Positions 2,056 to 48,724 of a stretch of DNA of 64,000 bases are shown here, piece after piece. Each line of letters begins with the position of its first letter. Positions within the stretch are counted from its first letter, which is position 1. The stretch is from contig JAJZRL010000004.1 of assembly GCA_021802705.1 (NCBI GenBank), positions 13,862 to 77,861 on the forward strand. Reading direction: 5' to 3'. The translations under genes were made by a program, and so were the position numbers. Under the pieces are notes generated by a model. That model worked only from the letters and a program-made list of their open reading frames with translations, was not told the DNA's origin and did no database searches. This stretch comes from a bacterium (lineage in GTDB: Bacteria; Patescibacteriota; Minisyncoccia; Phycocordibacterales; Phycocordibacteraceae).

Positions 2056-2229
2056 ATGAATGGCAAATCGCTCATCTGGGGCGGGATGGTTGTCGGATCG
2101 ACCGTCGGAAGCATCGTGCCGTATTTTTGGAACGGCGGCGTTCTTTCCTATACGCTTTGGAGCGCCATCGGCGGCTTCATCGGCATCTATCTCGGCTTCA
2201 AGCTCGCCAAAGCGACCGGCGCGCTATAA
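2056..2229 (+). CDS. small Gly-rich membrane protein (57 aa; GlsB/YeaQ/YmgE-like)
   Basis: ATG ORF below ORF-track size cutoff: MNGKSLIWGGMVVGSTVGSIVPYFWNGGVLSYTLWSAIGGFIGIYLGFKLAKATGAL; two Gly-zipper helices; coordinates +/-1. Confidence 0.5.
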   Translation: MNGKSLIWGGMVVGSTVGSIVPYFWNGGVLSYTLWSAIGGFIGIYLGFKLAKATGAL

Positions 2230-2703
2230 CCAGCGTCTCACGCTCAAGCGGTACCGGCGGTACTCTTCGCCGAACTTCTTTTCAAGGTATGCCTCTTCGC
2301 GCGCAATGACCTTGAACCGTATGAGTGCGAGGATAGGGATCAGCATGAGAAGCATCCAGAATGCGTTGAACCACGAAGTTGCGCCGAAAGAGAAGAGCGT
2401 CATGGAAAGATAGATCGGATTGCGGCTGAAACGGTACGGGCCGCTCGTTACGATGGCCGTTGTCGGCCGGCGCACATCCATGTTCGTTTTCGCGTTTCGA
2501 AGCGCGCGCGCCGCCGCGGCGATAAGCGCGAGAGAAACCGCCATAAGCGCCGCTCCGATCGGGTAGGCGAAACGCTCCGGCAAAAACGGGAAAGGGAAGA
2601 TCTCGTTCAGGAGCAGTCCGAGAGCGAGTCCGCCCGCATAGATGAACGGGGGCGGCAGAATGACTTTCGGCGAATCAGGCGGAGCGGTTTCGTTTGGATG
2701 CAT
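2224..2703 (-). CDS. isoprenylcysteine carboxyl methyltransferase (ICMT/PEMT) family membrane methyltransferase
   Basis: C-terminal consensus RxEExxLxxxFGxxYxxY (REEAYLEKKFGEEYRRYR) and several TM helices. Confidence 0.75.
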   Translation of the reverse strand: MHPNETAPPDSPKVILPPPFIYAGGLALGLLLNEIFPFPFLPERFAYPIGAALMAVSLALIAAAARALRNAKTNMDVRRPTTAIVTSGPYRFSRNPIYLSMTLFSFGATSWFNAFWMLLMLIPILALIRFKVIAREEAYLEKKFGEEYRRYRLSVRRWL

Positions 2704-2760
2704 AGGTATATCGTATATATTTTACAGCATTATATTTTGCCCGCCGATGTCTCTCGTCAT

Positions 2761-2790
2761 AAAAACTCCCGCAGGAAGCGGGAGTTTTTA
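2761..2790. terminator. intrinsic terminator-like hairpin (AAAAACTCCCGC-AGGA-GCGGGAGTTTTT), potentially bidirectional
   Basis: perfect 12-bp stem flanked by A-run and T-run, seen directly. Confidence 0.6.
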
Positions 2791-2796
2791 ACAAGA

Positions 2797-2988
2797 TCAT
2801 TCGGTATCGGATCGAGGGTGTTTTTCGCGAAACCTGTCACTCGCTCCGCACGCTATGTAATAACAAACAAGCTCGTCCTCATTCGGTTCATGCCCAAGAA
2901 CGAGCCCTGCGCCCCATCGATTGAGAGGGCTTAGTATTTCGATTCTCTGGAGAGCTAGATACTCTTCGAGCGTCAGACCTGTTTTCAT
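2797..2988 (-). CDS. hypothetical small protein (63 aa)
   Basis: ORF only; ends just upstream of hairpin at 2761-2790. Confidence 0.3.
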   Translation of the reverse strand: MKTGLTLEEYLALQRIEILSPLNRWGAGLVLGHEPNEDELVCYYIACGASDRFREKHPRSDTE

Positions 2989-3179
2989 CGAGAGTCTCCT
3001 TTCGTCAACAACTCACGGTACTGCTTTCCGTAGCGTAGCACCCCGTTGCGTAATTTCAATAACCTTGTTGTGCAACTCTTTATCGTTCCTGACCATTCTT
3101 CCGCCGTGCTTCGCGTCGCGATCCTCTTTCAGCGTTCAGTTCGAATCTTGGCGGGATCGAAGATATAATTCAAATATGT

Positions 3180-5081
3180 ATGGAAGATAACCACGCTCAT
3201 CATCACGACAGGCATGCCAGTCATCATGCCGCCGATTTTCTAAAGAAATTCTGGGTCGCGCTGGTGCTCTGCGTTCCTATCTTTTTCTACTCCGAAATGG
3301 CGCGGTCTGTGTTCGGCATACAAGGACCATCGTTCTCTGGTTCGGAATACGTCGGCCTGGTATTGGGCTCGATCGTTTTCTTTTATTGCGGCTGGGTCTT
3401 TCTCAAAAGCTCATATGGCGAATTGAAAGACAGGCAACCGGGCATGATGACACTAATCGCGCTCGCGATCACAGCGGCGTACCTCTACAGCTTTGTTTCC
3501 GTCACGGAAGGCACGCGCCATGACCTTCTCTTCGAGCTCTCTTCCCTGATTGCCATCATGCTTCTTGGGCACTGGATCGAGATGCGATCGGTTCAGGGAG
3601 CGCAAGGGGCGCTGAAAGAGCTCGCGAGACTCCTGCCGGACACAGCAGAAGTGATAAGAAACGGAAACGTGCGAAGCATCTCGCTCAATGAACTGGAAGC
3701 CGGCGATAGGATACTCGTTCGGCCCGGCGCAAAAGTCCCTGCGGACGGCGAAATTATAGAAGGCCAATCCGAGCTGAACGAGTCGATCATCACCGGCGAG
3801 TCAAAGCCGGTGTCAAAATCCGAAGGCATGAAAGCTATTGCCGGCTCCATAAACGGCGACGGAAGCCTGACCATCAAAGTCACCGGCATTGGCGAGGGCA
3901 CGTTCCTTGCGGGAGTGATGCGGTTAGTTGCCGACGCACAAGCATCCAAATCACGCCTCCAGATGCTTTCGGACCAAGCGGCTTTTTATTTAACCCTCAT
4001 TACTGTTGGAGCAGGAGCGCTAACGTTTATTGCCTGGATCATTGCACAAGCGGGTATCGGAACAGCAACCGAGCGGCTTATTGCCGTACTCGTCATCGCG
4101 TGCCCGCATGCATTGGGCCTCGCTATCCCGCTTGTCGCCGCAATATCGACGGCCATGGCTGCTCGCAACGGCTTGCTTATCAGAGAACGTCGGGCGCTGG
4201 AATCCGCGAGGAACATCGATACTGTGCTCTTTGACAAAACAGGAACACTCACCGAAGGCGTATTTGCCGTTACGTCTTTGAGTTCTGATGAAGCCCTCGC
4301 TCTCGCCGCAGCGGTTGAAACTCATTCGGAACATCCGATTGCGAAAGCGGTCGTCATGGAAGCAAAAGCGCGCGGCCTTGCCGTCGGAGATGCTCAGAAT
4401 TTCAAACGCATCGCTGGCGCCGGGGTTCAGGCAGAAGTGGAAGGTAGAACGGTCTTCGTCGGTCAGCGCAGCGGCGAGGATATTGTCGTGGAAATCGATG
4501 GAAAGAACGCCGGCAGTATTACCGTCGCAGACAAGGTGCGCCCTGAAGCTAAGGAAGCGATCGCTTCCTTGAAGCACATGAACGTGCAAGTTGCCATGAT
4601 TACCGGCGATTCTCAAGAAGTCGCACGAGACGTCGCCAGGCAGCTCGGCATACAAGAGTACTTTTCGCGCGCGCGGCCGGAGGAGAAAGCCGAAAAGGTG
4701 AAACTTCTACAATCGCAAGGTAAGAAGGTTGCTATGGTTGGCGATGGCGTGAACGACGCTCCCGCATTAACACAAGCCGACATTGGCATCGCCATAGGCG
4801 CTGGCACGAATGTGGCTATTGAATCGGCAGGAATAATTCTGGTACGGAGTGATCCACGCGACATCCCGAAGATTTTTTTACTCTCGCGCCTCACGTACCG
4901 TAAGATGATCCAAAATCTATTTTGGGCTACCGGTTATAATGTCGTGGCGATCCCGTTGGCGGCAGGGGTACTGGCGTTTAAGGGTGTCGTGTTACAGCCG
5001 GCTCTGGCTGCGATTTTTATGTCTGCTAGCACGGTTATCGTTGCAGCCAACGCAATGCTATTACGGAATCAGAAGTTCTAA
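3180..5081 (+). CDS. copB: heavy-metal (copper) translocating P1B-type ATPase, CopB-like (CPH subtype), His-rich N-terminus
   Basis: DKTGTLT phosphorylation motif, GDGVNDAPAL hinge, TM6 CPH motif ([10 protein letters not shown]), N-terminal HAHHHDRHASHH. Confidence 0.9.
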   Translation: MEDNHAHHHDRHASHHAADFLKKFWVALVLCVPIFFYSEMARSVFGIQGPSFSGSEYVGLVLGSIVFFYCGWVFLKSSYGELKDRQPGMMTLIALAITAAYLYSFVSVTEGTRHDLLFELSSLIAIMLLGHWIEMRSVQGAQGALKELARLLPDTAEVIRNGNVRSISLNELEAGDRILVRPGAKVPADGEIIEGQSELNESIITGESKPVSKSEGMKAIAGSINGDGSLTIKVTGIGEGTFLAGVMRLVADAQASKSRLQMLSDQAAFYLTLITVGAGALTFIAWIIAQAGIGTATERLIAVLVIACPHALGLAIPLVAAISTAMAARNGLLIRERRALESARNIDTVLFDKTGTLTEGVFAVTSLSSDEALALAAAVETHSEHPIAKAVVMEAKARGLAVGDAQNFKRIAGAGVQAEVEGRTVFVGQRSGEDIVVEIDGKNAGSITVADKVRPEAKEAIASLKHMNVQVAMITGDSQEVARDVARQLGIQEYFSRARPEEKAEKVKLLQSQGKKVAMVGDGVNDAPALTQADIGIAIGAGTNVAIESAGIILVRSDPRDIPKIFLLSRLTYRKMIQNLFWATGYNVVAIPLAAGVLAFKGVVLQPALAAIFMSASTVIVAANAMLLRNQKF

Positions 5082-5186
5082 AGTTCGAATCCCTTCACGG
5101 GTGGCTAGATTTCCTAAAATTGTACTGCGTAATAACGGTCTAGGATAAAGGATATCGGGTCTGTCTGATACAAAAGTCTTCGGGCG

Positions 5187-5267
5187 GTGAGATATTAGCC
5201 TTCGCTTTCAAGCCACCACGCGCTCGGCGCGTGCGAAGAAGGTTCGAGCGAAGGCTAATATCTCACC
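5187..5267. repeat. perfect 20-bp inverted repeat (GGTGAGATATTAGCCTTCGC / GCGAAGGCTAATATCTCACC) with 41-nt GC-rich spacer
   Basis: seen directly; lies between copB stop and the GC-rich ATPase gene. Confidence 0.8.
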
Positions 5268-5343
5268 GCAGATTGAAACTTCCTCGGGACTGAGGGCCGT
5301 GCAGATCGAGCGGGTAAGGTGTCTCATGCTATGATGAGAGGCG

Positions 5344-7731
5344 ATGCAAGCGGAAGCGTCGAGAGCGGCCGCCGATGATTCGGCGGAGAGTGGCGCGTAT
5401 GCGGGGCTGCAGACCATAGCACTTGATGCCCTGCGCGCGCAGTACGGCTACAACGAGCTGCCGGAATTCCGCGAGAACCCGCTCCTCCTCTACCTGAAGA
5501 ATTTCTGGGGGCCGCTCCCCTGGCTCATGGAGCTCATGGTCGTGGTGACGTTCGTCTCGGGGAGCCGGGTGGAGGCGCTCATCATCATCGCGCTCCTCCT
5601 CACAAACAGCGGCATCAACATCCTTGAGCGCCGTTCTGCAGATCGGGCCCTCGCGACCCTGCGCGAGGCCATCCAGGTCACCGCGCGTGTGTGGCGCGAT
5701 GGGGCGTGGGCGGTCATCCCTGCGCGCGAGCTCCTCCCCGGGGATGTCATCCGCGCGCGGGCGGGAGACGTCGTTCCGGCGGATGCGGTGCTCCTTGCAG
5801 GAGCAGTGAGTGTGGACGCTTCAAGCCTCACCGGCGAGTCGCTTCCGGACGATCTCGACGCGGGCGATCCCGCGTACTCGGGAAGCATCGTCCGGCGCGG
5901 CGAAGCGACCGCGCGCGTGACGGCGATCGGCAGGGAGACGCGATATGCGCAGACGACCGAGCTCCTCGAGACAGCCCACCCGCCGACTCACATGGAGAAG
6001 GTTATCTTCGCCGTCATCCGGTACTTCTTCCTCATGAACGTTCTCGTCGCAATCGGCATTACGGTCTTCGGCGTCGCCGTACACGCGCCGGCGATCGAGA
6101 TCGTAAACTACGTCATCGTTCTCCTCATGATGTCGGTGCCGATCGCGTTCCCGACCATGTTTGTAGTGGCGCAGACCTACGGCGCCCTGCAGCTTAGTAC
6201 GGACGGCGCCGGCGTGCGGGACGCGGGCAAGCGGGCGCTCACCCGCCGGCTCGGGGCGGTGCAGGAGGCGGCCGTCATGGACGTCCTCTGCAGCGACAAG
6301 ACCGGGACGCTCACGAAAAATGAGCTCGCGGTTGCCGCCGTCACGCACTATGGAGACTGTGATGAGAGGCGCGTACTCGCGCTTGCCGCCGCAGCGAGCG
6401 ATACGGAGGGCGGGGATGCCATAGATCAGGCGGTGCTCGCCCGCGCGGCCGAAGCGACCGCGCGCGTGCCCGAACGGGAAAGCTTCACGCCGTTCGACTC
6501 GTCGACCAAGCGCACGAGCGCCGTCGTCGTCGAAGCGGACGGGCGGCGCGAGGTGACGCTCGGGCTTGCAGACCTGCTGCTCGGCCCCGACGTGCGTTTC
6601 GCCGACGCCGCGCTTGAGGACGTCGCTGCGATGAGCGCCCGTGGGCTGCGGGTGCTCGCACTCGTCGTCTCTGACGAGCGGGGCGGGAAAGCCTGCGCGG
6701 GCCTCGTGGGACTCCACGACCCGATCCGCCCGGACGCACCCGCGCTCATCCGCGAGCTTTCCGAGCTCGGGATCCGGGTGGTTATGATCACAGGCGACGG
6801 GCGGATCACGGCGGAAGCCGTCGCCCGGGAGCTCGGCCTTGCGGGCGAAGTCTTCACGCCGGCAGACCTCAAGGAGCATCCAGGCATCGCGCTCTCCGGC
6901 GCGGTCTTTGCCGAAGCATACCCCGAAGACAAGCTTGTCATCATCGAGGCGCTCCAGAAGGCCGGCCACGTGGTCGGCATGACCGGCGACGGGGTGAACG
7001 ACGCGCCTGCTCTGCACCGCGCTGAGGTGGGCATCGCCGTGCTCGGAGCGACCGAGGTGGCAAAACAGGCAGCGAGCTTCATCCTGACGAGCGCGGGTCT
7101 CGAGGGGGTCCGGCGAGTGGTGACGGCCGGCCGGCGGGTGTACGTGCGCATCCACACGTGGGTGCTCAACAAGGTCGTGAAGTCCGTGGAGTCGCTTTTC
7201 ATCGCAACGGTCATCTTTGTGCTCACCCATGCCTACATCCTCTCGCCGCTCCTTGCTATCCTCATCCTCCTCTCGAACGATTTCGTAACGATCGCCATTG
7301 CCGCCGATCACACGCGTCCCTTGGCGCGGCCGGCTCGGTGGGACATCCCGCACCTCGTCGCCGGATCGTTCCTCGTCGCCACCGTGCCATACGCGTGCAC
7401 CATGGGCCTCTATCTGTTCGCCGCGCATGAGGGGTATCCGTTCGAGACGATACGCACGGTGGCGTACGTTTCGCTCATCTACCTCGGAGCAACGACCTTG
7501 CTCGCCGTGCGCGCCTGGCCGTTCGGCTGGAGCGTCCGCCCGAAAGGCATCCTCGTCGCCGCGCTCGTCTTCTCGCTCGTCTTCTCGTCGGTAGTGGCCG
7601 GATTCGGTATCTTCATCGCACCTCTGCCACTGGTCTTCTTCCCGCTTATCATCGCGCTGTCCGTCGCAAGCTTCTTCCTGATCGAGCTCGTCAAACGCGC
7701 TGCGTTCGTTCGGAGGTCTATCGGCGCATGA
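5344..7731 (+). CDS. P3A-type plasma-membrane H+-ATPase-like P-type ATPase
   Basis: N-terminal region YGYNELPEFRENPLLLYLKNFWGPLPWLMELM parallels AHA-type FGPNKLEEKKE..FLGFMWNPLSWVME; [31 protein letters not shown]; markedly GC-richer than neighbours. Confidence 0.85.
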   Translation: MQAEASRAAADDSAESGAYAGLQTIALDALRAQYGYNELPEFRENPLLLYLKNFWGPLPWLMELMVVVTFVSGSRVEALIIIALLLTNSGINILERRSADRALATLREAIQVTARVWRDGAWAVIPARELLPGDVIRARAGDVVPADAVLLAGAVSVDASSLTGESLPDDLDAGDPAYSGSIVRRGEATARVTAIGRETRYAQTTELLETAHPPTHMEKVIFAVIRYFFLMNVLVAIGITVFGVAVHAPAIEIVNYVIVLLMMSVPIAFPTMFVVAQTYGALQLSTDGAGVRDAGKRALTRRLGAVQEAAVMDVLCSDKTGTLTKNELAVAAVTHYGDCDERRVLALAAAASDTEGGDAIDQAVLARAAEATARVPERESFTPFDSSTKRTSAVVVEADGRREVTLGLADLLLGPDVRFADAALEDVAAMSARGLRVLALVVSDERGGKACAGLVGLHDPIRPDAPALIRELSELGIRVVMITGDGRITAEAVARELGLAGEVFTPADLKEHPGIALSGAVFAEAYPEDKLVIIEALQKAGHVVGMTGDGVNDAPALHRAEVGIAVLGATEVAKQAASFILTSAGLEGVRRVVTAGRRVYVRIHTWVLNKVVKSVESLFIATVIFVLTHAYILSPLLAILILLSNDFVTIAIAADHTRPLARPARWDIPHLVAGSFLVATVPYACTMGLYLFAAHEGYPFETIRTVAYVSLIYLGATTLLAVRAWPFGWSVRPKGILVAALVFSLVFSSVVAGFGIFIAPLPLVFFPLIIALSVASFFLIELVKRAAFVRRSIGA

Positions 7732-7865
7732 GTCCGCGCTTCGGGCCCCGCACCCGACGCTGCAACCCGGTGTTTCCGCGAGTTCTAGAGGGTAGAACAG
7801 CACCTATTGAGGGTCGCAACAAAACCTCGGCATTGCGGGAACACGCCGATAATAAGTTGTCAATG

Positions 7866-7952
7866 CGGAGACGGTGGGATTCGAACCCACGAGAGGATTT
7901 CTCCCCTGCCTCATTAGCAGCGAGGTGCTTTCGACCACTCAGCCACGTCTCC
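7866..7952 (-). tRNA. tRNA-Ser (anticodon GCU), long variable arm
   Basis: reverse complement GGAGACGTGGCTGAGTGGTCGAAAGC...anticodon loop CTGCTAA...T-arm GGGTTCGAATCCCACC; 87 nt. Confidence 0.85.
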
Positions 7953-7972
7953 GTAGGGCAAGGATAACAGAC

Positions 7973-8587
7973 TTAATGAGCGAGGGCGAGCGGGATGACA
8001 TGTCTTGCCCCGGCTGCTATAAGCGCGTCGATAGCTTCTTGAAGGGTTGCGCCGGTAGTAAGGACGTCGTCAAGGATGATGTAGGTGTAAGAGGGGTCGG
8101 CCTTGCGGACAGCCTTGAAGGCGTCTCGTACGTTTTCTTTGCGCGCAGCTCGGGAGAGTGTCGTTTGTGATTCCGTGTCGCGGACGCGCGTAAGGAGCGT
8201 CGTTTCTACGAGCATGCCGCCGGCCTTCTCTGCGGCACGCCGCGCGACTTCCTCGACCTGGTTATATCCGCGCATCCTGCGCCGCTTCTTGCTAAGCGGG
8301 ATCGGTATGATCGAGAATGTGCAGAAATCCGCTTCGTCGATCATGAGCAGGTATTCGGCGAGAGTGTCGGCGAGAAGATCGAAAGCGCGTTCGTTGCCGT
8401 GGTATTTCGCTTCATGGATAGCGGCCCGCACGCGAGTATCGGAGAAGGGAAGGAGCGCGGTTGCGGGTGGTCGCGTATCGGGAACCTGGCGCGGATCCAG
8501 AAGCGCCGCAAAGTCGTCGGGCGCGAGGCCGCGGAGCGCCTTCTCGTCCGCGCGCGGAGGGAAAAGGATGTCAAGCCAGCGCAGCAT
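7973..8587 (-). CDS. ComF family phosphoribosyltransferase-domain protein
   Basis: C-terminal PRTase motif YIILDDVLTTGATL. Confidence 0.75.
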   Translation of the reverse strand: MLRWLDILFPPRADEKALRGLAPDDFAALLDPRQVPDTRPPATALLPFSDTRVRAAIHEAKYHGNERAFDLLADTLAEYLLMIDEADFCTFSIIPIPLSKKRRRMRGYNQVEEVARRAAEKAGGMLVETTLLTRVRDTESQTTLSRAARKENVRDAFKAVRKADPSYTYIILDDVLTTGATLQEAIDALIAAGARHVIPLALAH

Positions 8588-8601
8588 GATATCATTCTTA
8601 C

Positions 8602-9681
8602 ATGTCCGGACTTTCGTTTTTCGCTAATCTCTTTGGGAAAAAGGAAGAGAGCGTCCTTGGCGTCGATATCGGCTCCTCGTCTTTGAAGGTCGTGCAGCTT
8701 CGGAAAAAGCAAGGGCGGGTCGTGCTTGAAACCTATGGCGAACTCGCGCTCGGTCCTTACGGCGGCGCGGAAGTAGGGCAAGCGATGAACCTCTCCGCCG
8801 AGCAGATTACCGAAACGCTCAAGGACTTGCTGCGCGAAGCGAAAGTGACGGCAAAGAGCTGCGGCGTTTCGATACCGTTCGCCCGGTCCCTCCTCACGCT
8901 CGTTGAGCTTCCTTATCGCAAGGATCCGCGAGAGCAGAAGACCGTCATCGAGCTCGAAGCGAGGAAATATATCCCTGTGCCAGTGAGCGAGATACAGCTC
9001 GACTGGTTCATCGTTCCCGAGGAAGACCCGTCGCAGAACGCTCCCAAAGAAAAGATCGACGTGCTTATCGTCGCCGTCCACAATGACGAGCTGAAGTTCC
9101 TTCAGAGCGTTATCACGGGCGCGCATCTCGCGGCGAGCTTCTATGAGATCGAGATTTTCAGCACTATCCGTGCGGCTGTCGGGGAGCAGGTGAAGCCGGT
9201 CATGATCCTTGATATCGGCGCCGCTTCGACGAAAACGTACGTAGTCGAGCACGGGGTCGTGGCGCTTTCGCACGCCATAAGCGTCGGGAGCCAGGATATC
9301 ACCCGCGCTATCGCGGTTTCCGGCAATCTTCCCATCGCCCGTGCGGAAGTGCTTAAAAAAGAAAAAGGCCTTGAAGGGGGCGAATCGCTGAGCTCCCTCG
9401 AGCTCGTCTTCTCTCGAATCTTTTCGGAAGTGCGGCGTGTGCTCATACAGTATGAGACGGCTCATAAGAAATCCATCACATCGATCGTGCTTACCGGCGG
9501 CGGTGGTATCACGAAAGCGCTCGACGATTACGCGAAAAGCATCTTTTCGATCGACGTGCATGTCGCGGATCCGTTCTCGAAAACGGAGGCGCCGGCCTTC
9601 ATGCGGTCGGTTCTCGAAGAGATCGGTCCCGAGTTCGCGGTTGCCGTCGGACTCGCGCTTCGCAAGCTCGAGGAGATGTAG
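8602..9681 (+). CDS. pilM: type IV pilus assembly protein PilM (actin-like ATPase)
   Basis: N-terminus GVDIGSSSLKVVQL, size and position at head of pil cluster. Confidence 0.85.
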   Translation: MSGLSFFANLFGKKEESVLGVDIGSSSLKVVQLRKKQGRVVLETYGELALGPYGGAEVGQAMNLSAEQITETLKDLLREAKVTAKSCGVSIPFARSLLTLVELPYRKDPREQKTVIELEARKYIPVPVSEIQLDWFIVPEEDPSQNAPKEKIDVLIVAVHNDELKFLQSVITGAHLAASFYEIEIFSTIRAAVGEQVKPVMILDIGAASTKTYVVEHGVVALSHAISVGSQDITRAIAVSGNLPIARAEVLKKEKGLEGGESLSSLELVFSRIFSEVRRVLIQYETAHKKSITSIVLTGGGGITKALDDYAKSIFSIDVHVADPFSKTEAPAFMRSVLEEIGPEFAVAVGLALRKLEEM

Positions 9682-9714
9682 AAGAAAGTTTTACACACGT
9701 GTCGCGCTCGAAGC

Positions 9715-10401
9715 TTGCGAAGCTGTCGTATACTAAAAGAAATGGCTCTTCCTCCGACAATACCGACCTCTTTCGTTCCGTACTCGGCGTCTGCGTCGAC
9801 GCGGCAGTTCCGCGGCGATTTCTCAGGCGCATTCAATTTCTTCGCGTACGCCGCGTTTTTCATCGCGCTCTCGCTCGCCGTCGGAGTTTTCTTTTACGGC
9901 CGCATCCTTTCCGCGACGCTCGCATCGAAAGACGCCGATTTAAGCAAAGCCGAAGCGTCGGTTGACGAGACGACCGTCAACAGCTTCCTGCAGCTGCACA
10001 ACCGCCTCCTTTCCGGAGAAACGCTCCTCGGGAACCATGTCGCTCTCTCGAATTTCTTCACGCTACTCGAGACCATCATGCCGACGAGCGTCCGCTTCTC
10101 CTCGTTGAATCTTTCGCTCGACAGTTCATCCGGTGCGGTACAAGTAGACGGATCAGGCGTTGCGAAGAGTTTTAACGCTCTAGCATCCGCTTCTATCGCT
10201 TTCGCGAAGGACGGCCGCATCAAGAACGCCATATTCTCGAATATCAGCGTCAATAAGAACAGCTCGGTCACCTTCGCCTTCACCGCATCGCTTGATCCGA
10301 AACTCGTCGCGTTCTCGCCGTCGGCTTCCGCAACGCTTGCGCCGAATGCCTCGACGACAACAGCATCAACGACGGCGACGACGAGCGCCCCTCTGCCATG
10401 A
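9715..10401 (+). CDS. PilN-like pilus assembly membrane protein
   Basis: single N-terminal TM followed by coiled-coil region; follows pilM. Confidence 0.55.
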   Translation: MRSCRILKEMALPPTIPTSFVPYSASASTRQFRGDFSGAFNFFAYAAFFIALSLAVGVFFYGRILSATLASKDADLSKAEASVDETTVNSFLQLHNRLLSGETLLGNHVALSNFFTLLETIMPTSVRFSSLNLSLDSSSGAVQVDGSGVAKSFNALASASIAFAKDGRIKNAIFSNISVNKNSSVTFAFTASLDPKLVAFSPSASATLAPNASTTTASTTATTSAPLP

Positions 10402-10967
10402 ACAGCCGCGTCCTTCCGCTCCTCGCTCTCATCGCGACCATCGCCATCTTTTTCGGGTATGTGAAGCCTACCTGGAGCGGCGAGATAGCGAATCTCAATA
10501 CCGCTATCGCCGCCGACGATCAGGCTCTTGCAGCCGCGGATGCATACGCTTCACAGCAGAATGCGCTCATTGCCGCGCGCAACGCCATCAATCCACAGGA
10601 CCTTTCGAGGCTCTCGACGTTCTTGCCGAGCTCGGCCGATAATGTCGGCATCATCCTCGACCTGAACGCTCTCGCCGCCCGCTCCGGCCTTTCCCTCTCG
10701 AGCATCGATGTTTCTAAAAATGCGGCGGCAGATGCTACTCCGACAAGCGCTCCGAACGGAACCTTCTCAGCAACTCCTTCGACCGGCTCCGTGAACTCGG
10801 TCGATCTCTCCCTTTCCGCCGTCGGTACCTATAGCGCATTCCAGACATTTCTTCAGGGGATTGAAAAGAGCCTCCGTCTTCTCGATGTCCAGAGTCTTTC
10901 CGTGACAGGCTCCGATACCGGATCGTATAATTACAGTATGACCATCCGTTTATACTGGCTCCGCTAA
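10398..10967 (+). CDS. PilO-like pilus assembly membrane protein
   Basis: TM anchor plus coiled coil; start overlaps previous gene (operon-like coupling). Confidence 0.55.
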   Translation: MNSRVLPLLALIATIAIFFGYVKPTWSGEIANLNTAIAADDQALAAADAYASQQNALIAARNAINPQDLSRLSTFLPSSADNVGIILDLNALAARSGLSLSSIDVSKNAAADATPTSAPNGTFSATPSTGSVNSVDLSLSAVGTYSAFQTFLQGIEKSLRLLDVQSLSVTGSDTGSYNYSMTIRLYWLR

Positions 10968-10973
10968 TCCGCT

Positions 10974-11276
10974 ATGAAATTCAATTCAAGCACCATCCTT
11001 ACGATTCTCGCGACGCTTATCGCTGCGGCCGGCGCGTATTGGTATTTCTTCACCGGAACAGGAAATCAGCCGCCGCTTACCGCAAACGCATCGAAAAACG
11101 AGGCACAAGCGCATTTCCAAGCGCTCGTCAGCGAACTGCAGACGATTTCCTTCGATACCGGCATTTTTTCTGATCCGCGTTTCAACGCGCTCGCCGATCT
11201 TACGACGCCCGTCGCTCCGGAAACATTGGGCCGTCTGGATCCATTCGCCCCGATTCCTGGCATAAGCGGAAAATGA
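10974..11276 (+). CDS. hypothetical membrane-anchored protein (possible PilP-like)
   Basis: signal-anchor N-terminus; position in pil cluster. Confidence 0.4.
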   Translation: MKFNSSTILTILATLIAAAGAYWYFFTGTGNQPPLTANASKNEAQAHFQALVSELQTISFDTGIFSDPRFNALADLTTPVAPETLGRLDPFAPIPGISGK

Positions 11277-11279
11277 GTA

Positions 11280-13058
11280 ATGAATCTTCTCGGACTTCTT
11301 CTTGATAAAGGCCTTCTCTCTGCGAATGATCGCGTAGCGATCGAGGCCGAACTCGCGAAGAATCGTCCGCTTAAGGACGTGCTTGCCGAACACGGCATCT
11401 CGCTCAAAGATGCGCTCGCCTCCGCAGGGGAGGTCTACAAGCTCCCTACCCGGATACTCGGTAATCCTCCGGCCAGCGAAGACGCGCTGAGCTATATCCC
11501 GATCGACTCGGCGCGCCACTACGGATTCGTCCCGCTTAACATAGTCGACGGGGCGCTCGAGGTCGGCATCGTCGATCCTGACAATATCGAGGCGCTCGAT
11601 GCGTTGCAGTTCATCTCAGGCCAGACGGGCGTGCCATATAAGATCTTCCTCATCTCGAAGGAAGATTTCGAGCGGGTCCTTAAGGCGTATCAGAACCTTA
11701 CCGGCGAGATAGGGAAGGCGCTTTCCGAGTATGAAATGAGCAGCAAGCCTGCCGCTGCGCAGCCCGCCTCTCCCGAGGCGGAGTCGCAAGACGACAAGCC
11801 GCTCACTCTCACGACCGGCGCCCAGCACGAGACCCTCAAAGAGGATGCGCCGGTAACGAAGATCGTCTCGACGATACTGCGGTACGCTATCGAAGGCCAC
11901 GCTTCCGACATCCATATCGAGCCGTCGCCGACCAAGACCCGGGTGCGTTTCCGTACGGACGGCGATCTCCACACCTCTCTTGAACTCCCCGCAAAAGTGC
12001 GCGATGCGGTCATCGCGCGCGTGAAGATTCTCGCAAAACTGCGTCTCGATGAGAAAAGAAAACCGCAGGACGGCCGTTTTTCAGCGACCATCGATATGCG
12101 ACGTATCGATTTCCGCGTCTCGACCTTCCCGACGGAATACGGAGAAAAGGTCGTGATGCGTATCCTCGATCAGTCGGCCGCGACGGCGACGCTCGATTCG
12201 ATTGGCTTTTCGGAGGAGCAGCTCTCCGGCATACGCGATATGATGAAAGCGCCCTACGGCATTATTCTTATCGCCGGTCCGACCGGATCAGGAAAGTCGA
12301 CGACGCTCTTCGCTATGCTTTCCGAGCTTGATCGCGAGACCGCCAACGTGGTTTCGCTCGAAGACCCCGTCGAGTACGAGATACCCGGCGTTTCCCAGAG
12401 CCAGGTGCGGCCGGAGATAGGCTATACTTTCGCGAGCGGGCTGCGATCTATCTTGCGCCAAGACCCGGATGTCATCATGGTCGGCGAGATCCGTGATAAC
12501 GAAACCGCAGTCCTCGCCGTGCAGGCGGCTCTTACTGGTCATCTCGTTTTCTCCACCATCCATACGAATACCGCCACCGGCGCGATACCGCGCCTCATCG
12601 ACATGGGCGTCGACCCTTTCCTTATCGCGCCGACGCTCGTTGCGGTTATCGGGCAACGTCTCGTGCAGAAGCTCTGCGACGGCGCGGGGAAGCCTTTTCC
12701 GATCACCGCGAGCATGAAAGCGTTTCTGGAGCGGGAATTCGAGGACCTGCCCGCCGAATACAAGAAGAAACTGCCTCCGTTTGAAAATTTCTATCGCGCG
12801 AGCCCGACGACCGAGTGTCCGAACGGTACGCGTGGCCGCACGGCGGTCTTCGAGATCCTCAACATGGAGAAGAGTATCGAACAGGTCGTGCTCAAGGAGC
12901 CGGTTGAGGAAACCATTTATACCGCCGCGCGTGCGAACGGGATGCTCACGATGCACGAAGATGCCATCATAAAGGCTCTTCAAGGGAAGATTCCTTTCGA
13001 GGAGGTGAATACGCTCGGCGGAGACCTTCTTCCCGAAGGGGATAGCGATACCGAGTAA
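11280..13058 (+). CDS. pilB: type IV pilus assembly ATPase PilB (GspE family)
   Basis: Walker A GPTGSGKSTT, GspE N-domain, C-terminal Cys cluster. Confidence 0.9.
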   Translation: MNLLGLLLDKGLLSANDRVAIEAELAKNRPLKDVLAEHGISLKDALASAGEVYKLPTRILGNPPASEDALSYIPIDSARHYGFVPLNIVDGALEVGIVDPDNIEALDALQFISGQTGVPYKIFLISKEDFERVLKAYQNLTGEIGKALSEYEMSSKPAAAQPASPEAESQDDKPLTLTTGAQHETLKEDAPVTKIVSTILRYAIEGHASDIHIEPSPTKTRVRFRTDGDLHTSLELPAKVRDAVIARVKILAKLRLDEKRKPQDGRFSATIDMRRIDFRVSTFPTEYGEKVVMRILDQSAATATLDSIGFSEEQLSGIRDMMKAPYGIILIAGPTGSGKSTTLFAMLSELDRETANVVSLEDPVEYEIPGVSQSQVRPEIGYTFASGLRSILRQDPDVIMVGEIRDNETAVLAVQAALTGHLVFSTIHTNTATGAIPRLIDMGVDPFLIAPTLVAVIGQRLVQKLCDGAGKPFPITASMKAFLEREFEDLPAEYKKKLPPFENFYRASPTTECPNGTRGRTAVFEILNMEKSIEQVVLKEPVEETIYTAARANGMLTMHEDAIIKALQGKIPFEEVNTLGGDLLPEGDSDTE

Positions 13059-13087
13059 CCGGCTCTCATGTACTATACTATCCTATA

Positions 13088-13507
13088 ATGGCTTACCGAA
13101 TCTATCTCGTCGACGACGACCGTTTCCTCCTCGATTTGTATGCGATAAAGTTTAAGAATGCCGGTCACGACGTAAGCGTGTTTAATGGCGGCGAAGACCT
13201 TCTCGCCGCGCTCCGCAAGGAAGACGCGCCCGTACCAAGCGCCATCCTGCTCGACGTTATCATGCCCGGCATGAGCGGTTTCGAGATTCTCGATACGATA
13301 CGGAAAGAGGGTCTTGCGAAAGGGGCGAAGTTCATCATCCTTTCAAATCAAGGACAGGATTCCGATTTCGAGAAGGCGAAGGAGCTCTCCGTTGACGGCT
13401 ACATCATAAAAGCATCCGCCATCCCGTCAGAGGTGCTCACGGAGACTATCCGTACCATCGAGGGTGGTGCGCAGCAGGGCGGCGGAGAACTGCCGATCCA
13501 CCAGTAA
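13088..13507 (+). CDS. single-domain response regulator (CheY-like receiver)
   Basis: YLVDDD...LDVIMPGMSGFEIL receiver motifs, no output domain. Confidence 0.8.
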   Translation: MAYRIYLVDDDRFLLDLYAIKFKNAGHDVSVFNGGEDLLAALRKEDAPVPSAILLDVIMPGMSGFEILDTIRKEGLAKGAKFIILSNQGQDSDFEKAKELSVDGYIIKASAIPSEVLTETIRTIEGGAQQGGGELPIHQ

Positions 13508-13519
13508 AATTTAACCACC

Positions 13520-14581
13520 ATGGCTGCTGACAAACGTCTTGAAGAACTCCTCGATATCGTCATCACGGAAGGCGGCTCCGATCTGCATCTTTTCGTCGGC
13601 GGTCGCCCGGTGGTTCGGATCGCGGGCGCGCTCATCCCGCTCTCGAAGTACCCGGTATTTGCCGCTGACGAGACGGAGGCGATGTTGAAGAGCATCGTGC
13701 CGCCGGACCGCTGGGATTCTTTTATGGAAAATCAGACCATCGATCTTTCGTACGCCTACCGGGAAGACATGCGTTTCCGCGTAAACGGCTACCGGGTACA
13801 GGGAGGGGTAGCTATCGCGTTCCGGCTTATTCCGCATGCGGTACGCACCTTCTCCGATCTCAACCTCCCGTCCGTGCTCGAAGTCTTCACGCAGCGCGAA
13901 CAAGGCTTCTTTATCGTCGTGGGGCCGGTCGGGCACGGCAAATCAACGACGCTTGCCGCGATGATAAACCGCATCAACGATTCTCGTGCGGAGCACATCC
14001 TCACCATCGAAGATCCGGTCGAATACGTCTTTACGCCCAAGAAATCGCTCATCCATCAGCGTGAAGTGTACGTCGATGCGCCCAGCTTCAGCACGGCCTT
14101 ACAGAGCGCGTTCCGTGAAGATGTCGATGTCATCATGGTCGGCGAGATGCGCGATTATGAGACTATCTCGGCGGCAGTAACCGCCGCCGAAACCGGCCAT
14201 CTCGTCTTTTCGACGCTCCACACCAACAACGCCGCGCAGACCATCGACCGCATCATCGACATGTTTCCGGCCGAGCAACAAGACCAGGTGCGCGTGCAGC
14301 TCGCCGGTTCCCTGGCGGGTATCTTTTCCCAACGGCTCATACCGCGCGTTTCAGGCGGGCTTATTCCGGCGTACGAGCTCCTCATCAACAACAACGCCGT
14401 CGCAAACCTCATCCGCGAGGCGCAGACCCACGAGATCAGCGCCGTCATCCAGACCTCTTCGCAAGATGGCATGATCGACATGGACCGCATGCTCGCAGAC
14501 CTTGTTCATCGCGGGGAAGTCACGGTCGAGCACGCCTATGAGCACTCGATGGACCCGAAAACCTTTGAACGCTATCTTTAG
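13520..14581 (+). CDS. pilT: twitching motility ATPase PilT
   Basis: Walker A GPVGHGKSTT, PilT-family length and motifs. Confidence 0.9.
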   Translation: MAADKRLEELLDIVITEGGSDLHLFVGGRPVVRIAGALIPLSKYPVFAADETEAMLKSIVPPDRWDSFMENQTIDLSYAYREDMRFRVNGYRVQGGVAIAFRLIPHAVRTFSDLNLPSVLEVFTQREQGFFIVVGPVGHGKSTTLAAMINRINDSRAEHILTIEDPVEYVFTPKKSLIHQREVYVDAPSFSTALQSAFREDVDVIMVGEMRDYETISAAVTAAETGHLVFSTLHTNNAAQTIDRIIDMFPAEQQDQVRVQLAGSLAGIFSQRLIPRVSGGLIPAYELLINNNAVANLIREAQTHEISAVIQTSSQDGMIDMDRMLADLVHRGEVTVEHAYEHSMDPKTFERYL

Positions 14582-14587
14582 CCTGCC

Positions 14588-15793
14588 ATGCTTTTCAAAT
14601 ATCACGCTATCGATCAAGACGGTCATGAGCGGGACGGAACCATCGAAGCGCCGTCGCAGGAAGTCGCCATCTCGGCGCTGCAGCGCCGCAATCTCATCAT
14701 TTCGGCGATAGAGTCGACCGAGAAGCGGTCGGTGCTCGAGATCGAGATACCGTTTTTCAACCAGGTCTCGAACAAGGACGTCGTCGTCCTTTCGCGCCAG
14801 GTAGCGACGCTCTTCGAAGCGCAGGTGTCTGCGCTTCGCGTCTTCAGGCTCCTCGCCGCCGAAGTCGACAATAAGCAGCTCTCGTCCGTCCTCTCCGCAG
14901 TCGGAGACGACCTCCAAAGCGGAAGCCCCATAAGCAAGGCTCTTGCGCGCCACCCGAAAGTATTCAAGCCGTTTTACGTAAACATGGTCGCAGCCGGAGA
15001 AGAGTCCGGGAAACTCTCGGAAACGTTCGTCTACCTCGCCGACTACCTCGACCGCTCCTACGATGTCATCAGCAAGGCCGAGAACGCGCTCATCTATCCG
15101 ATCTTCGTCATCGCCGTCTTCTTCGGCGTCATGGCGCTCATGCTCACGCTCGTGATCCCGAAGATAAGCGCGGTGCTGCTCGATTCCGGCCAGCCGGTGC
15201 CGCTCTATACGAGCATCATCATCGGCTTTTCGAACTTCCTCATCCAGTACGGCATCTTCCTGATCATCGGGCTCATCGGGCTTGGCATATATGCGTGGCA
15301 GCTCAGCAAGACCGAGCGCGGCAAGCTTCTTCTCGACGGGATCAAGCTTTCGGTGCCGTACGTAGGCGACCTCTACAAGAAGCTCTATCTCGCGCGCATC
15401 GCGGACAACTTCTCCACCATGCTTACTAGCGGCGTCTCGGTCATCAAGGCGCTTGAGATTTCCGCAGCTGTCGTCGATAACTCCGTCTATGCGAACGTCC
15501 TTACCGCCGTCGGGGCGGACGTGCGCGGCGGCTCGGCCGTCTCAAGCGCGCTCGGGAAGCATCCGGAGATGCCGGGCATCATGGTCGCCATGACAAGGGT
15601 CGGAGAGGAGACCGGCGAGCTCGGCAAGATCCTCACGACGCTCGCGAAGTTCTATAACCGCGAAGTGGTGAATGCGGTCGATACGCTCGTCGGGCTCATC
15701 GAGCCGATCATGATCGTGATGCTCGGCCTTGGCGTCGGTACGCTCCTCGCCGCGGTGCTCCTTCCTATCTACAACCTCGCAAGCGCCATTTGA
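14588..15793 (+). CDS. pilC: type IV pilus platform protein PilC (GspF family)
   Basis: duplicated GspF domains, polytopic. Confidence 0.85.
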   Translation: MLFKYHAIDQDGHERDGTIEAPSQEVAISALQRRNLIISAIESTEKRSVLEIEIPFFNQVSNKDVVVLSRQVATLFEAQVSALRVFRLLAAEVDNKQLSSVLSAVGDDLQSGSPISKALARHPKVFKPFYVNMVAAGEESGKLSETFVYLADYLDRSYDVISKAENALIYPIFVIAVFFGVMALMLTLVIPKISAVLLDSGQPVPLYTSIIIGFSNFLIQYGIFLIIGLIGLGIYAWQLSKTERGKLLLDGIKLSVPYVGDLYKKLYLARIADNFSTMLTSGVSVIKALEISAAVVDNSVYANVLTAVGADVRGGSAVSSALGKHPEMPGIMVAMTRVGEETGELGKILTTLAKFYNREVVNAVDTLVGLIEPIMIVMLGLGVGTLLAAVLLPIYNLASAI

Positions 15794-15899
15794 GCGCTTC
15801 CGAGAAAACGCTATCCACAGCCTGTGCCCAAAAAGCGTATGCGTGCGCTAAAATAGAACACAGGTATAGATAACAAGTTAATAATCGCAAATAATCTTT

Positions 15900-16382
15900 A
15901 TGTATAACAATCGTTCTCGAGGTTTCACCCTCATCGAGCTCCTCGTCGTGATCGCCATCATCGGCATCCTCTCGGCGGTCGTGCTCGCTTCGCTTAGCAC
16001 CGCTCGCAGCAAAGGTAGTATCGCCGCCATCCAATCAAATATAAATGCGGTACAGACGCAGGCGGAAATATATTACGGTAGCAATTCTAATAGTTATGGT
16101 ACGCAAGCATGGTCAAGCGGGGCCGCGTCAGCGTGTACGGGAGGCATGTTCTCTGATTCGACCATAACAAAGGCGCTTGCGCAGGCAGATTCTTCGAACG
16201 GAAGCGGCAATATAGACTGCGTTGCGAATGGCACCTCATACGTTGTCGCCGCAGATATCAGCCAGCTTCAAGCTCCCGTTTCCCCGCAAGTTGGAAATTG
16301 GTGGTGTGTTGATTCCTCGGGAACGGCACGACAAGAAACAGCAACCGCATTCCCAACGGCTGCCATCTCTGTCTGCCCGTAG
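15900..16382 (+). CDS. type IV major pilin (prepilin-type N-terminal cleavage/methylation domain)
   Basis: RGFTLIELLVVIAIIGIL prepilin leader/TM. Confidence 0.85.
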   Translation: MYNNRSRGFTLIELLVVIAIIGILSAVVLASLSTARSKGSIAAIQSNINAVQTQAEIYYGSNSNSYGTQAWSSGAASACTGGMFSDSTITKALAQADSSNGSGNIDCVANGTSYVVAADISQLQAPVSPQVGNWWCVDSSGTARQETATAFPTAAISVCP

Positions 16383-16399
16383 GAAGAAGTAGTAAACAC

Positions 16400-16428
16400 A
16401 AAAACCCGCGGCTATGCCGCGGGTTTTT
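16400..16428 (+). terminator. rho-independent terminator after pilin gene
   Basis: AAAACCCGCGG-CTAT-GCCGCGGGTTTTT. Confidence 0.8.
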
Positions 16429-16442
16429 GATATGATACAAGG

Positions 16443-17207
16443 ATGCTTTCTCTCTCGCTTATAACGTTCTTCGCTCTTGGCGCGCTCGTCGCGAGCTTCA
16501 TAGGCGTGGTCGTTGCGCGCCTCAACACCGGGGAAGGTTTCCTTACGGGCCGCTCGCGGTGCGATGTCTGCGGGGCGCCGCTCTCGTTTCTCTCGCTCGT
16601 GCCGATCGTCTCATACCTCGCTTCGTGCGGCCGCGCCCGCTGCTGCGGCGCGCGCATTTCGGCGCGCGCGCCGCTCTCCGAATTCCTTCTCGGCGCGCTC
16701 TTCGCCCTCTCTTTCGCACGGCTCGGGCTTACCGTGACGCTCCTCTTCATGCTCGTGTCCCTTTCGATGCTCCTTGCCCTTGTCCTCTACGACCTCATGC
16801 ATCAGATACTGCCGGCCGGACTCCTTACGGCATTCGTCCTTGCTGCGGCGGCAACCGGATTTTTATCGGCGAGCGATTTTGAGACGTTTGGAAGATCGCT
16901 TCTCGTCGCAGGTGTTTTCGCGCTCTTTTTCGCGCTCATTCACTTTCTCTCGCACGGCCGCGCCATGGGCTTTTCCGACACCCCGCTTGTTTTCGGTCTC
17001 GCTCTCCTTGCGGGGGAGCATGCGCTGCCCGGGTTCGTCTTCTCGTTTTGGATCGGCGCCGTCATAGGGATAACGCTGTTGGCGCGGCGGCCTCATGGTT
17101 CTAGAATAGGGGTTGAGGTGCCGTTCGCCCCGTTTCTGGCCGCCGGCTTCCTTCTCGCATACTTCACCCAATGGAATCCTTTCCTTATCGCCGCGGTTTT
17201 ACCCTGA
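16443..17207 (+). CDS. pilD: prepilin peptidase PilD (A24 family)
   Basis: polytopic, N-terminal Cys-pair region CDVCGAPL...CGRARCCGA. Confidence 0.8.
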   Translation: MLSLSLITFFALGALVASFIGVVVARLNTGEGFLTGRSRCDVCGAPLSFLSLVPIVSYLASCGRARCCGARISARAPLSEFLLGALFALSFARLGLTVTLLFMLVSLSMLLALVLYDLMHQILPAGLLTAFVLAAAATGFLSASDFETFGRSLLVAGVFALFFALIHFLSHGRAMGFSDTPLVFGLALLAGEHALPGFVFSFWIGAVIGITLLARRPHGSRIGVEVPFAPFLAAGFLLAYFTQWNPFLIAAVLP

Positions 17208-21676: not shown

Positions 21677-21970
21677 ATGGCGACGGTAGAGGAGGTAAAA
21701 AAGCTCGCGATGCTCGCGCGCATCGCGATAGCCGAGGAAGACGTCCTGAAATTCACGAACGAATTCGACGCTATCCTTGCATACGTGGGGCAGCTCGAAA
21801 CGCTCGATCTCTCCGACAGCACGACGGATGCGAAGCCGCCTTTGCGCAACAGCATGCGCATCGATGGCGACCCCCATGCTCCGGGCGTTTATACCGAGAC
21901 ACTCGCCGCGCAATTCCCCGACCGCGAGGACGATGCGCTTTCGGTAAAACAGATTGTCCAGCATGACTAA
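21677..21970 (+). CDS. gatC: Asp/Glu-tRNA amidotransferase subunit C
   Basis: MATVEEVKKLAMLARIAIAEEDV... typical GatC; immediately upstream of gatA. Confidence 0.8.
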   Translation: MATVEEVKKLAMLARIAIAEEDVLKFTNEFDAILAYVGQLETLDLSDSTTDAKPPLRNSMRIDGDPHAPGVYTETLAAQFPDREDDALSVKQIVQHD

Positions 21971-48720: not shown

Positions 48721-48724
48721 TCCT

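Follow-up and report, generated by a model that had tools for sequence, protein, structure and literature searches.

Probable within-phylum acquisition of a P3A-like P-type ATPase gene in a tRNA-Ser(GCU)-anchored island of a Patescibacteria genome

Three kinds of described system bear on the locus reported here. P-type ATPases of the P3A type, among them the plant and fungal plasma-membrane H+-ATPases AHA2 and Pma1, have been treated in prokaryotes as mainly archaeal (PMC10654040). Islands anchored on transfer RNA (tRNA) genes, such as the tycheposon islands of Prochlorococcus (10.1101/2020.12.28.424599) and the Islander-type tDNA islands (PMC4383910), have variable regions that begin at the 3′ end of the tRNA gene. 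Integron cassettes are short tandem units split by conserved non-coding repeats. Here we analyzed a 64,000-nt stretch of Patescibacteria DNA (the window; GenBank assembly GCA_021802705.1, contig JAJZRL010000004.1, positions 13,862 to 77,861 of the forward strand), in which a gene for a P3A-like P-type ATPase (5344..7731, + strand) lies beside a tRNA-Ser(GCU) gene (7865..7952, − strand). The ATPase is a new, probably horizontally acquired member of a P3A-like pump family found across the Patescibacteria, where pumps of this type are common and mobile. With a probability of roughly 0.72, the gene was acquired from another lineage of the phylum, one akin to the host of its sister gene (locus L006 among the loci we fetched), in an island anchored on tRNA-Ser(GCU), and likely encodes an H+ pump. 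Our literature search found nothing specific on P3A pumps of the candidate phyla radiation (CPR) or on tRNA-Ser cassette systems.

The first line of evidence is the position of the gene. A search with the PilM protein gave 80 species-representative relatives, titled Kaiserbacteria, Paceibacterota or Parcubacteria and with PilM identities of 63 to 84%; the order ComF-PilM-PilN-PilO-PilB is kept in nearly all of them, GroES-GroEL-HisPhos is kept upstream in many, and tRNA-Ser(GCU) adjoins ComF in 13 of the 13 tested. Within the 10-kb flanks of this conserved locus, the ATPase gene is absent from 80 of 80 relatives. Nucleotide alignments (blastn) with three relatives whose GroEL is 91% identical (L010, L011, and L012) are collinear over window positions 2-2221/2232 and 7860-12000, and the 5.6 kb between have no counterpart; L012 holds just 155 nt there. 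Homology with the relatives resumes at 7860, 5 nt from the 3′ end of tRNA-Ser(GCU), and the distance from HisPhos to ComF among relatives runs from 0.65 to more than 8 kb. Judged by this collinearity, the ATPase gene is not ancestral at this site and is an insertion relative to related genomes, and the locus is a hypervariable hot spot with the tRNA-Ser(GCU) 3′ end as its starting point.

The variable island spans 2222..7864 and contains a PEMT-like gene (−), a CopA gene (+), a repeat that we call X, a perfect hairpin, the ATPase gene (+), and a short element termed X2; these 5.6 kb are missing from the closest relatives. The tRNA gene that anchors it was called by ARAGORN and scores 60.5 bits against Rfam, and its 3′ end faces the ATPase gene. 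The original prediction had correctly placed a tRNA-Ser(GCU) downstream on the opposite strand, one nucleotide short of its full extent (7866-7952 instead of 7865-7952), and the synteny comparison agrees with an insertion whose right edge is the 3′ end of that tRNA. The hairpin proved not to be the left edge, given that the island begins near 2222 and includes CopA and the PEMT-like gene as well.

Since the window comes from a metagenome-assembled genome (MAG) and the GC content steps abruptly at both ends of the ATPase gene, we considered whether a GC-rich segment of another organism had been joined to this contig in silico by assembly or binning. An identical ATPase protein with the same neighbors occurs in the NCBI MAG GCA_027356665.1 and in an independent contig from the European Nucleotide Archive (ENA). 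The junctions CopA-hairpin-ATPase-tRNA-Ser-ComF-PilM are the same in the 50.5-kb NCBI contig and in the separately assembled 11.3-kb ENA contig, and their identity in two independently assembled contigs makes a chimera unlikely. An 84-kb contig is also recorded for the identical protein, the flanks hold the X repeat and a remnant of another element (W, below) typical of the hot spot in this lineage, and the codon usage of the ATPase gene fits the host. We therefore regard a chimera as extremely improbable.

The second line of evidence is the phylogeny of the gene. Homologues from outside the CPR, including proteins of Acidiferrobacter and Actinomycetota, were found only at 40 to 44% identity. 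Within the Patescibacteria, the family comprises dozens of 90%-identity clusters at 50 to 79% identity, under the names Paceibacterota, Minisyncoccota, and Saccharimonadales. All close homologues come from uncultured bacteria and all the named ones from Patescibacteria, the closest four (P0002 to P0005) being 75 to 79% identical. In our tree, the window ATPase is sister to P0002, the protein encoded at L006, with 99% bootstrap support, inside the P1-P5 clade (100%), so that the window gene nests in a Paceibacteria clade. The four closest homologues share a gene neighborhood, LemA-M48-(GGDEF)-tRNA-Ser(GGA)...ATPase...DUF192-RNR-TPR-MurJ-LepA, that is unlike the one in the window. Other family members occupy yet other contexts, one being an island that carries AcrVA2-like and AbiEii genes along with a recombinase remnant.

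Comparison with a housekeeping protein points the same way. The GroEL of the window host is 81 to 91% identical to that of its backbone relatives, which have no ATPase at the locus, and only 56 to 63% identical to that of the ATPase-bearing genomes, with which the ATPase itself shares 70 to 79%. Between the window and L006, GroEL is 63% and the ATPase 79% identical, an excess of 16 points; in two calibration pairs (L006 and L122, GroEL 66% and ATPase 71%; L120 and L122, GroEL 80% and ATPase 82%) the excess is 2 to 5 points. Taken together, the nesting of the gene, the foreign neighborhood of its relatives, the mismatch between GroEL and ATPase, and the variety of contexts support acquisition from another Paceibacteria lineage and not from outside the phylum. 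The host is a Kaiserbacteria-like member of the Paceibacteria within the CPR. Its ATPase gene most likely came to it from a lineage akin to the L006 host, inside the same phylum, the direction and the vehicle of this transfer being what we infer from the pattern. The original prediction of a horizontally acquired gene thus stands as to insertion and probable acquisition, but not as to a donor outside the host lineage, because the close homologues are all Patescibacteria; the phylogeny that was expected to place its nearest relatives elsewhere puts the gene inside a Paceibacteria clade.

Base composition had first drawn attention to the gene, and we found that it says less about origin than it seems to. 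In 500-nt windows, GC content is 0.63 to 0.71 over 5251-7750 and 0.53 to 0.60 on either side. The gene has a GC content of 0.663 (GC1 0.697, GC2 0.469, and GC3 0.823), the highest of any gene in the window, compared with a window mean of 0.555, which agrees with the earlier observation that this reading frame is much GC-richer than its surroundings. The description of its third positions as almost all G or C was too strong, as GC3 is 0.82 and five other window genes reach 0.80 to 0.86. From its amino acids and the codon usage of the host, the gene would be expected to have a GC content of 0.624, itself the highest expected value in the window. Since the amino acid sequence alone gives this value, about 4 of the 10 excess points are synonymous (+0.040, against a gene-to-gene background with a standard deviation of 0.029 and a maximum of 0.045), and about half of the GC excess comes from amino acid content. 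We therefore dropped GC3 and codon usage as proof of transfer: the synonymous excess lies within background and the codons are host-like, so the windowed calculation does not sustain the claim that GC bias reveals a foreign origin. Two features hint that the gene once resided in a GC-richer genome: the share of GC-encoded residues (GARP) is 0.345, compared with 0.29 to 0.30 in the four closest orthologues, which come from hosts of similar GC content, and the offset between gene and flank is largest, at +0.10 each, for the window and L006 among nine genomes. Composition is weak evidence and on its own no proof of transfer, and the case is a caution that a GC-rich gene can appear foreign mostly through its amino acid content.

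Codon choice accounts for a 660-amino-acid antisense open reading frame (ORF; 5821..7803, −), whose presence was noted at the outset and confirmed here. Antisense stops correspond to sense TTA, CTA, and TCA codons, and the frame stays open because the ATPase gene holds only one of these (TCA at 5821); host usage predicts about 5.9 (P(0) = 0.002). In the ATPase orthologues the antisense frame is broken into fragments; it is therefore a by-product of codon choice and not a gene.

Several observations weigh against acquisition. Its synonymous GC excess falls inside the background range, its codons are more host-preferred than average (codon likelihood z = +4.8), and the ATPase-bearing lineages also carry the gene a few kilobases downstream of groESL, so that some ancient shared neighborhood is possible. 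Moreover, the island contains no integrase or transposase, its only called genes being those for the PEMT-like protein, CopA, and the ATPase, and a search allowing up to 3 mismatches found no displaced copy of the 3′ end of tRNA-Ser(GCU) in the window. Vertical inheritance with relocation would hold that an old Paceibacteria gene downstream of groESL was lost in nearly all members of the family, retained here, and then rearranged, its GC content reflecting protein composition and expression-linked codon bias. This account is helped by the host-like codon usage, by the wide distribution of the ATPase family in the phylum, and by the order SBP5-SecG-GroES-GroEL, which lies a few kilobases upstream of the ATPase in the window and in the P0007, P0009, and L006 genomes. 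It requires, however, that the gene was lost at this locus in every one of the 80 sampled relatives, and it has to accommodate a gene that nests among genomes with only 56 to 63% GroEL identity, the 16-point excess over GroEL compared with 2 to 5 points in the calibration pairs, and a site that is a tRNA-anchored variable region rich in mobile-type repeats. Nor does it explain why GARP is higher than in orthologues whose hosts have equal GC content. We consider vertical inheritance quite unlikely, and acquisition within the phylum remains our preferred explanation.

The protein encoded by the gene has 795 amino acids and 10 predicted transmembrane (TM) helices, without a C-terminal regulatory domain, and contains the Pfam domains Cation_ATPase_N, E1-E2_ATPase, and Hydrolase (HAD). 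Its top NCBIfam model is TIGR01647, the plasma-membrane proton-efflux P-type ATPase, at 550.4 bits, compared with 238 bits for the MgtA model. By sequence, the closest solved structures are AHA2 (5ksd, 6.6e-94) and Pma1, at 25 to 28% identity. An AlphaFold2 model (pLDDT 79.5, pTM 0.74, 10 TM helices) searched with Foldseek matched 9ugb at 4.7e-47; the best structural superpositions were with 7nxf and 5ksd (Pma1/AHA2; TM-score 0.78), with MgtA close behind at 0.77. When conservation was scored over an alignment of 60 homologues with identities down to 36%, N88, P266/P270, D318, K610, and D646 were invariant in 60 of 60, as was the whole D318-K-T-G-T motif, in which D318 is the phospho-aspartate. 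N88 in TM2 corresponds to AHA2 N106. TM4 carries PIAFP (P266, P270; PIAMP in AHA2), without the cation-binding Glu and without a CPC metal motif. In TM6, D646 aligns with AHA2 D684 and Pma1 D730, which accept and donate the proton in those enzymes, and in TM5, K610, a Lys and not an Arg, aligns with Pma1 R695, which like AHA2 R655 serves as a built-in counter-ion; a TM6 Asp and a TM5 basic residue have been named as the proton-transport pair (PMC10654040). The P3A hallmarks seen in the original prediction are thereby upheld in the form "P3A-like," while its description of the type as sporadic in bacteria does not survive the family's wide distribution in Patescibacteria.

These features point to a single-subunit pump that most likely uses ATP to export H+, serving membrane potential or pH homeostasis. 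Set against this are the score, which falls below the TIGR01647 equivalog cutoff of 615.5 bits, the presence of Glu616 at the position of AHA2 Arg655, the occurrence of CsoR-type or ArsR-type metal regulators beside some orthologues, and a recent review in which prokaryotic P3A ATPases come mainly from methanogens and methanogenic archaea and have their function called undetermined (PMC10654040). On these grounds we term the protein only P3A-like. In L121/L122 (8802-9603) the orthologue lies just downstream of a CsoR-type repressor and DUF4396, and in L003 (4345-6007) just downstream of ArsR and an HMBD-ArsP permease. Such neighbors hint at a possible link to metal stress. They also make it conceivable that the pump moves another cation, with a role tied to Mg2+, K+, or a metal, and was recruited into a metal-homeostasis island; the CopA gene next to it in the window, the subcutoff TIGR01647 score, MgtA structures nearly equal to Pma1/AHA2 (0.77 versus 0.78), and the lack of any prokaryotic P3A enzyme with an established substrate (PMC10654040) would all sit well with that idea. 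The margin of the P3A model over MgtA (550 versus 238 bits), the TM4 PIAFP sequence, and the TM6 Asp and TM5 basic residue held across the 60 homologues speak for protons instead, and the gene neighbors of the ATPase differ widely among genomes. We see a pump for another cation as a serious minority possibility and H+ export as the better reading.

Expression of the gene may be largely autonomous. An extended −10-like box, TGCTATGAT, at 5327..5335 (+) ends 8 nt before the ATG; it was not called by a consensus promoter scan. Just before the ATPase start codon, L004 and L007 share a conserved GCTATGAT (or (T)GCTATGAT) and L003 has a variant of it; a Shine-Dalgarno sequence cannot be seen ahead of the start, either in the window (5327-5346) or in the upstream regions of these three orthologues. 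A conserved box 8 nt from the ATG and no visible Shine-Dalgarno sequence suggest leaderless or near-leaderless expression of the ATPase family, and for the window gene a promoter of its own and a leaderless or near-leaderless mRNA.

We turn now to the repeats that surround the gene. X (5082..5187, −) is a conserved repeat of about 105 nt that is 88 to 91% identical to copies in L004 and L106. An exact 24-nt core of X occurs in 29 metagenome stretches, and in 11 of these, as well as in L006, the start of X coincides exactly with the 3′ end of a tRNA-Ser gene (anticodons gga, gct, tga, and cga). In a further 10 cases, the element before X (or before a variant of X) is Z, a conserved module of about 100 nt whose end resembles the tRNA-Ser acceptor end. 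X has no base-pair covariation and only a weak local stem (RNAalifold), no Rfam family, and no further copy elsewhere in the window; neither X nor Z was found in viral contigs. The T-loop-to-3′-end segment of tRNA-Ser(GCU) is present in L103 as two perfect 23-nt direct copies (2082-2104 and 8486-8508) that bound a 6.4-kb island without an integrase, and because the displaced copy, 6.4 kb downstream, is followed by different sequence, X must be inserted (island) DNA. Units of X, one or two cargo genes, and Z were found at L006 (2741-5373), L103 (2106-3215), L104 (57-1043), L109 (1866-3857), and L114 (787-2495), and their cargo is diverse, including ATPases, a sigma factor, and RibD_C-like, NUDIX, and CYTH proteins. 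The sister gene at L006 is itself a self-contained single-gene unit, tRNA-Ser(GGA)|X - ATPase P0002 - Z|X′.

The window ATPase is not such a unit. It lies between tRNA-Ser(GCU)|X2 and a remnant of the resident element W; X2 (7836..7864, −) is a 29-mer, ATTGACAACTTATTATCGGCGTGTTCCC, that begins exactly at the tRNA-Ser(GCU) 3′ end. X2 occurs only once more, at L106 position 4613, where it directly follows Z, with the 3′ end of a large serine recombinase gene about 85 nt away. Here, too, some findings tell against acquisition: the X2 match is short and borderline (blast E value 0.04), X2, the hairpin, and Z share no similarity above that of shuffled sequences, X is inverted relative to the ATPase gene and sits on the CopA side, and no Z follows the ATPase gene. 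Given the inverted X and the missing Z, a clean X-ATPase-Z unit did not simply move in. Resemblances seen by eye between X2 and X, and between 5270-5343 and X, were dropped as no better than shuffles.

Between X and the ATPase gene lies a perfect hairpin (5184..5269) with 23-nt arms (5184-5206 and 5247-5269) and a 40-nt loop. No other long-loop perfect inverted repeat occurs in the 64 kb, and none is expected by chance. The original prediction had described it as a perfect 20-bp repeat with a 41-nt spacer at 5187-5267; the perfect repeat is there, with a stem, loop, and extent different from those given. The spacer 5082-5343 is a mosaic of X, the hairpin, and the W remnant, and the hairpin stands at the junction of a CopA/X module and a W-remnant/ATPase module. 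W is a conserved non-coding element of about 240 nt beside tRNA-Ser(GCU), with copies in L026 (8836-9068) and L109 (7410-7642) and two partial copies in L053; it is 92% identical between two Kaiserbacteria-like genomes, and L109 belongs to the family of the host. Its final 65 nt, which we call Y, make up the hairpin loop and right arm in the window (5206..5270, +), with 92% identity to L026 9004-9068 and 84 to 88% to L109 7573-7648. The W remnant was not found in viral contigs. The end of W in L026 is 42 nt away from the tRNA-Ser(GCU) 3′ end, and deleting 5271-7864 from the window would set the W remnant beside the tRNA in the same way. The left arm of the hairpin overlaps the end of X by 4 nt; L026 and L109 have the loop and the right arm without the left arm. 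These alignments support the hairpin as a probable marker of an internal junction at which the W remnant meets the CopA cassette with its X end. In the simplest reading, the right arm would have been duplicated recently in inverted orientation, at the point where the CopA/X module joined W, giving the left arm.

A perfect 23-bp stem could instead be a functional element of RNA or DNA, such as a copA terminator, an operator, or an attC-like recombination site, and not a by-product of the junction. The hairpin-containing intergenic stretches do fold far better than shuffles (z = −4.95 for 5082-5343 on the + strand and −5.8 for 5082-5275 on the − strand), and the hairpin sits between two convergently organized modules, in the position that Z or tRNA-Ser takes before X elsewhere. 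As an intrinsic terminator it was rejected: it was not called by a terminator scan, its loop is 40 nt, and no U-tract follows, the next sequence being AGATTGAAAC. The hairpin has no Rfam family; the intergenic region, W of L026, and the Z|X units were all scanned against Rfam, with tRNA as the only match. The arm has no further copy in the window, and among the other fetched loci (L003-L124) the hairpin recurs only in duplicate contigs of this genome; upstream of ATPase orthologues no hairpin was found. A likeness of the hairpin to tRNA-Ser and to Z, seen by eye, was dropped as no better than shuffles. With a left arm that is missing where loop and right arm are conserved, a functional role for the hairpin is unlikely, and a junction remains the preferred interpretation.

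The neighboring cargo in the island shows related traits. At its left end is a gene for a PEMT/ICMT-like methyltransferase (2224..2703, −; Pfam annotation), of which the syntenic interval of the relatives has no copy. The CopA-type P1B copper ATPase (3180..5081, +; TIGR01511, 581 bits) has homologues at 70 to 79% identity in Patescibacteria, in different gene contexts; no X repeat was found beside them. A T-loop-like motif, AGTTCGAATCTTGGCGGGAT (3138..3158, +), is a direct repeat of 5082-5104, so that the pair brackets CopA (3138-5104), and AGTTCGAATC is found in the window only twice, at 3138 and 5082. The AGTTCGAATC/AGTTCGAATCTTGGCGGGAT motif resembles the start of Z and, on the opposite strand, the end of X, and it marks the outer ends of X and Z elsewhere. 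Bracketed by the only two AGTTCGAATC motifs and with codon usage more atypical (z = −8.5) than that of any other gene in the first 47 kb, CopA too looks like acquired cargo.

What could have moved such cargo is suggested by the recombinases nearby. Large serine recombinases 49 to 66% identical to a window ORF (50998-52353) lie within a few kilobases of X or X2 in L102, L106, L110, and L115, and more distant ones occur in the same hot spot of L021, L030, and L070; among 125 ORFs of X-bearing loci there was no tyrosine recombinase. In the window, a large serine recombinase gene lies 43 kb from the island, in another island. A tentative model, which we would put at well below even odds, is that of a previously undescribed Paceibacteria cassette system: units of one or two genes, with X on the left and Z on the right, would stack at the 3′ end of any tRNA-Ser, the end of Z would mimic the tRNA-Ser acceptor end and so re-create the target, and large serine recombinases may move the units in trans. 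The window ATPase and CopA would then be cargo, and the 23-bp palindrome a scar or a variant of a Z-type end.

Other features were recorded along the way. IS200-type Y1 transposase genes recur in these Paceibacteria contigs (L004 20657-21100 and L124 9573-10004), and L004 carries a 44-aa remnant of a serine recombinase at 21695-21826. In the window, a type IV pilus/competence-type cluster at 8602-18387, preceded by ComF, encodes PilM, PilN- and PilO-like proteins, two T2SSE ATPases, a response regulator, T2SSF, a prepilin peptidase, and pilins, and is conserved across the 80 relatives. A third P-type ATPase (25173-27308) has an N-terminal heavy-metal-binding domain (HMBD) and ordinary codon usage (z = 0.2). 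The segment 46900-64000 is low in GC (0.46 to 0.53) and has mobile-element content: type III restriction-modification genes (47266-51001), the large serine recombinase (50998-52353, −), a PIN_12 protein, a small-terminase-like protein (55043-55495, −), a ParB-methylase (55482-56882, −), and a LexA/S24 repressor (57416-58162).

Patescibacteria have a reduced energy metabolism, and for this reason an ATP-driven proton pump could be a main route by which these ultra-small cells energize their membranes. The locus also offers a concrete case of how CPR genomes exchange adaptive transporters, here at a hot spot next to tRNA-Ser whose junction repeats are conserved.

How the locus compares with described systems can be set out for the enzyme, the cassettes, and the island in turn. 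With AHA2 and Pma1, which are its best matches in both sequence and fold, the window ATPase shares DKTGT, N88, the PIAxP motif, and D646, and at the position of Pma1 R695 it has a basic residue (K610). It differs from them in its length of 795 amino acids without N- or C-terminal autoinhibitory domains (the eukaryotic regulatory tail), in the Glu at the AHA2 R655 position, in its 25 to 28% identity, and in a score under the TIGR01647 trusted cutoff. A short, regulator-less P3A-type architecture is common to the window enzyme and the prokaryotic P3A-like ATPases, to which we take the M. jannaschii enzyme to belong; unlike those of methanogens, the window enzyme falls in a large Patescibacteria clade.

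Integron cassettes and clusters of attC sites lacking integrases (CALINs) resemble the X-Z units in being tandem units of one or two genes, split by conserved non-coding repeats of about 100 to 200 nt, with cargo mostly co-oriented with the repeat (about 18 of 22 cases for X). The X-bearing loci, however, have no IntI-type integrase, and X and Z have neither the R″/R′ boxes (RYYYAAC/GTTRRRY) of attC, by inspection, nor an attC-type palindrome. Moreover, X-Z arrays are anchored on tRNA-Ser, and the window cargo has a promoter-like box of its own.

The likeness to tRNA-anchored islands of the tycheposon and Islander types (10.1101/2020.12.28.424599; PMC4383910) is broader. Here, too, the variable region begins at the tRNA 3′ end, its content differs between close relatives, its cargo is adaptive (here ion pumps), and stacked degenerate units are separated by tRNA-like fragments without integrases; L103 even shows the classical displaced 23-nt tRNA fragment. 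The differences are that the window island has neither an integrase nor a displaced tRNA fragment, that the recombinases near X are large serine recombinases and not tyrosine integrases, and that the X and Z ends are long (about 100 nt), nearly identical across distant hosts, and present on all four tRNA-Ser isoacceptors examined. By this analogy, the closest described model is that of the Prochlorococcus tycheposons, in which a tRNA-seeded additive island is built up from transient, decaying integrative elements.

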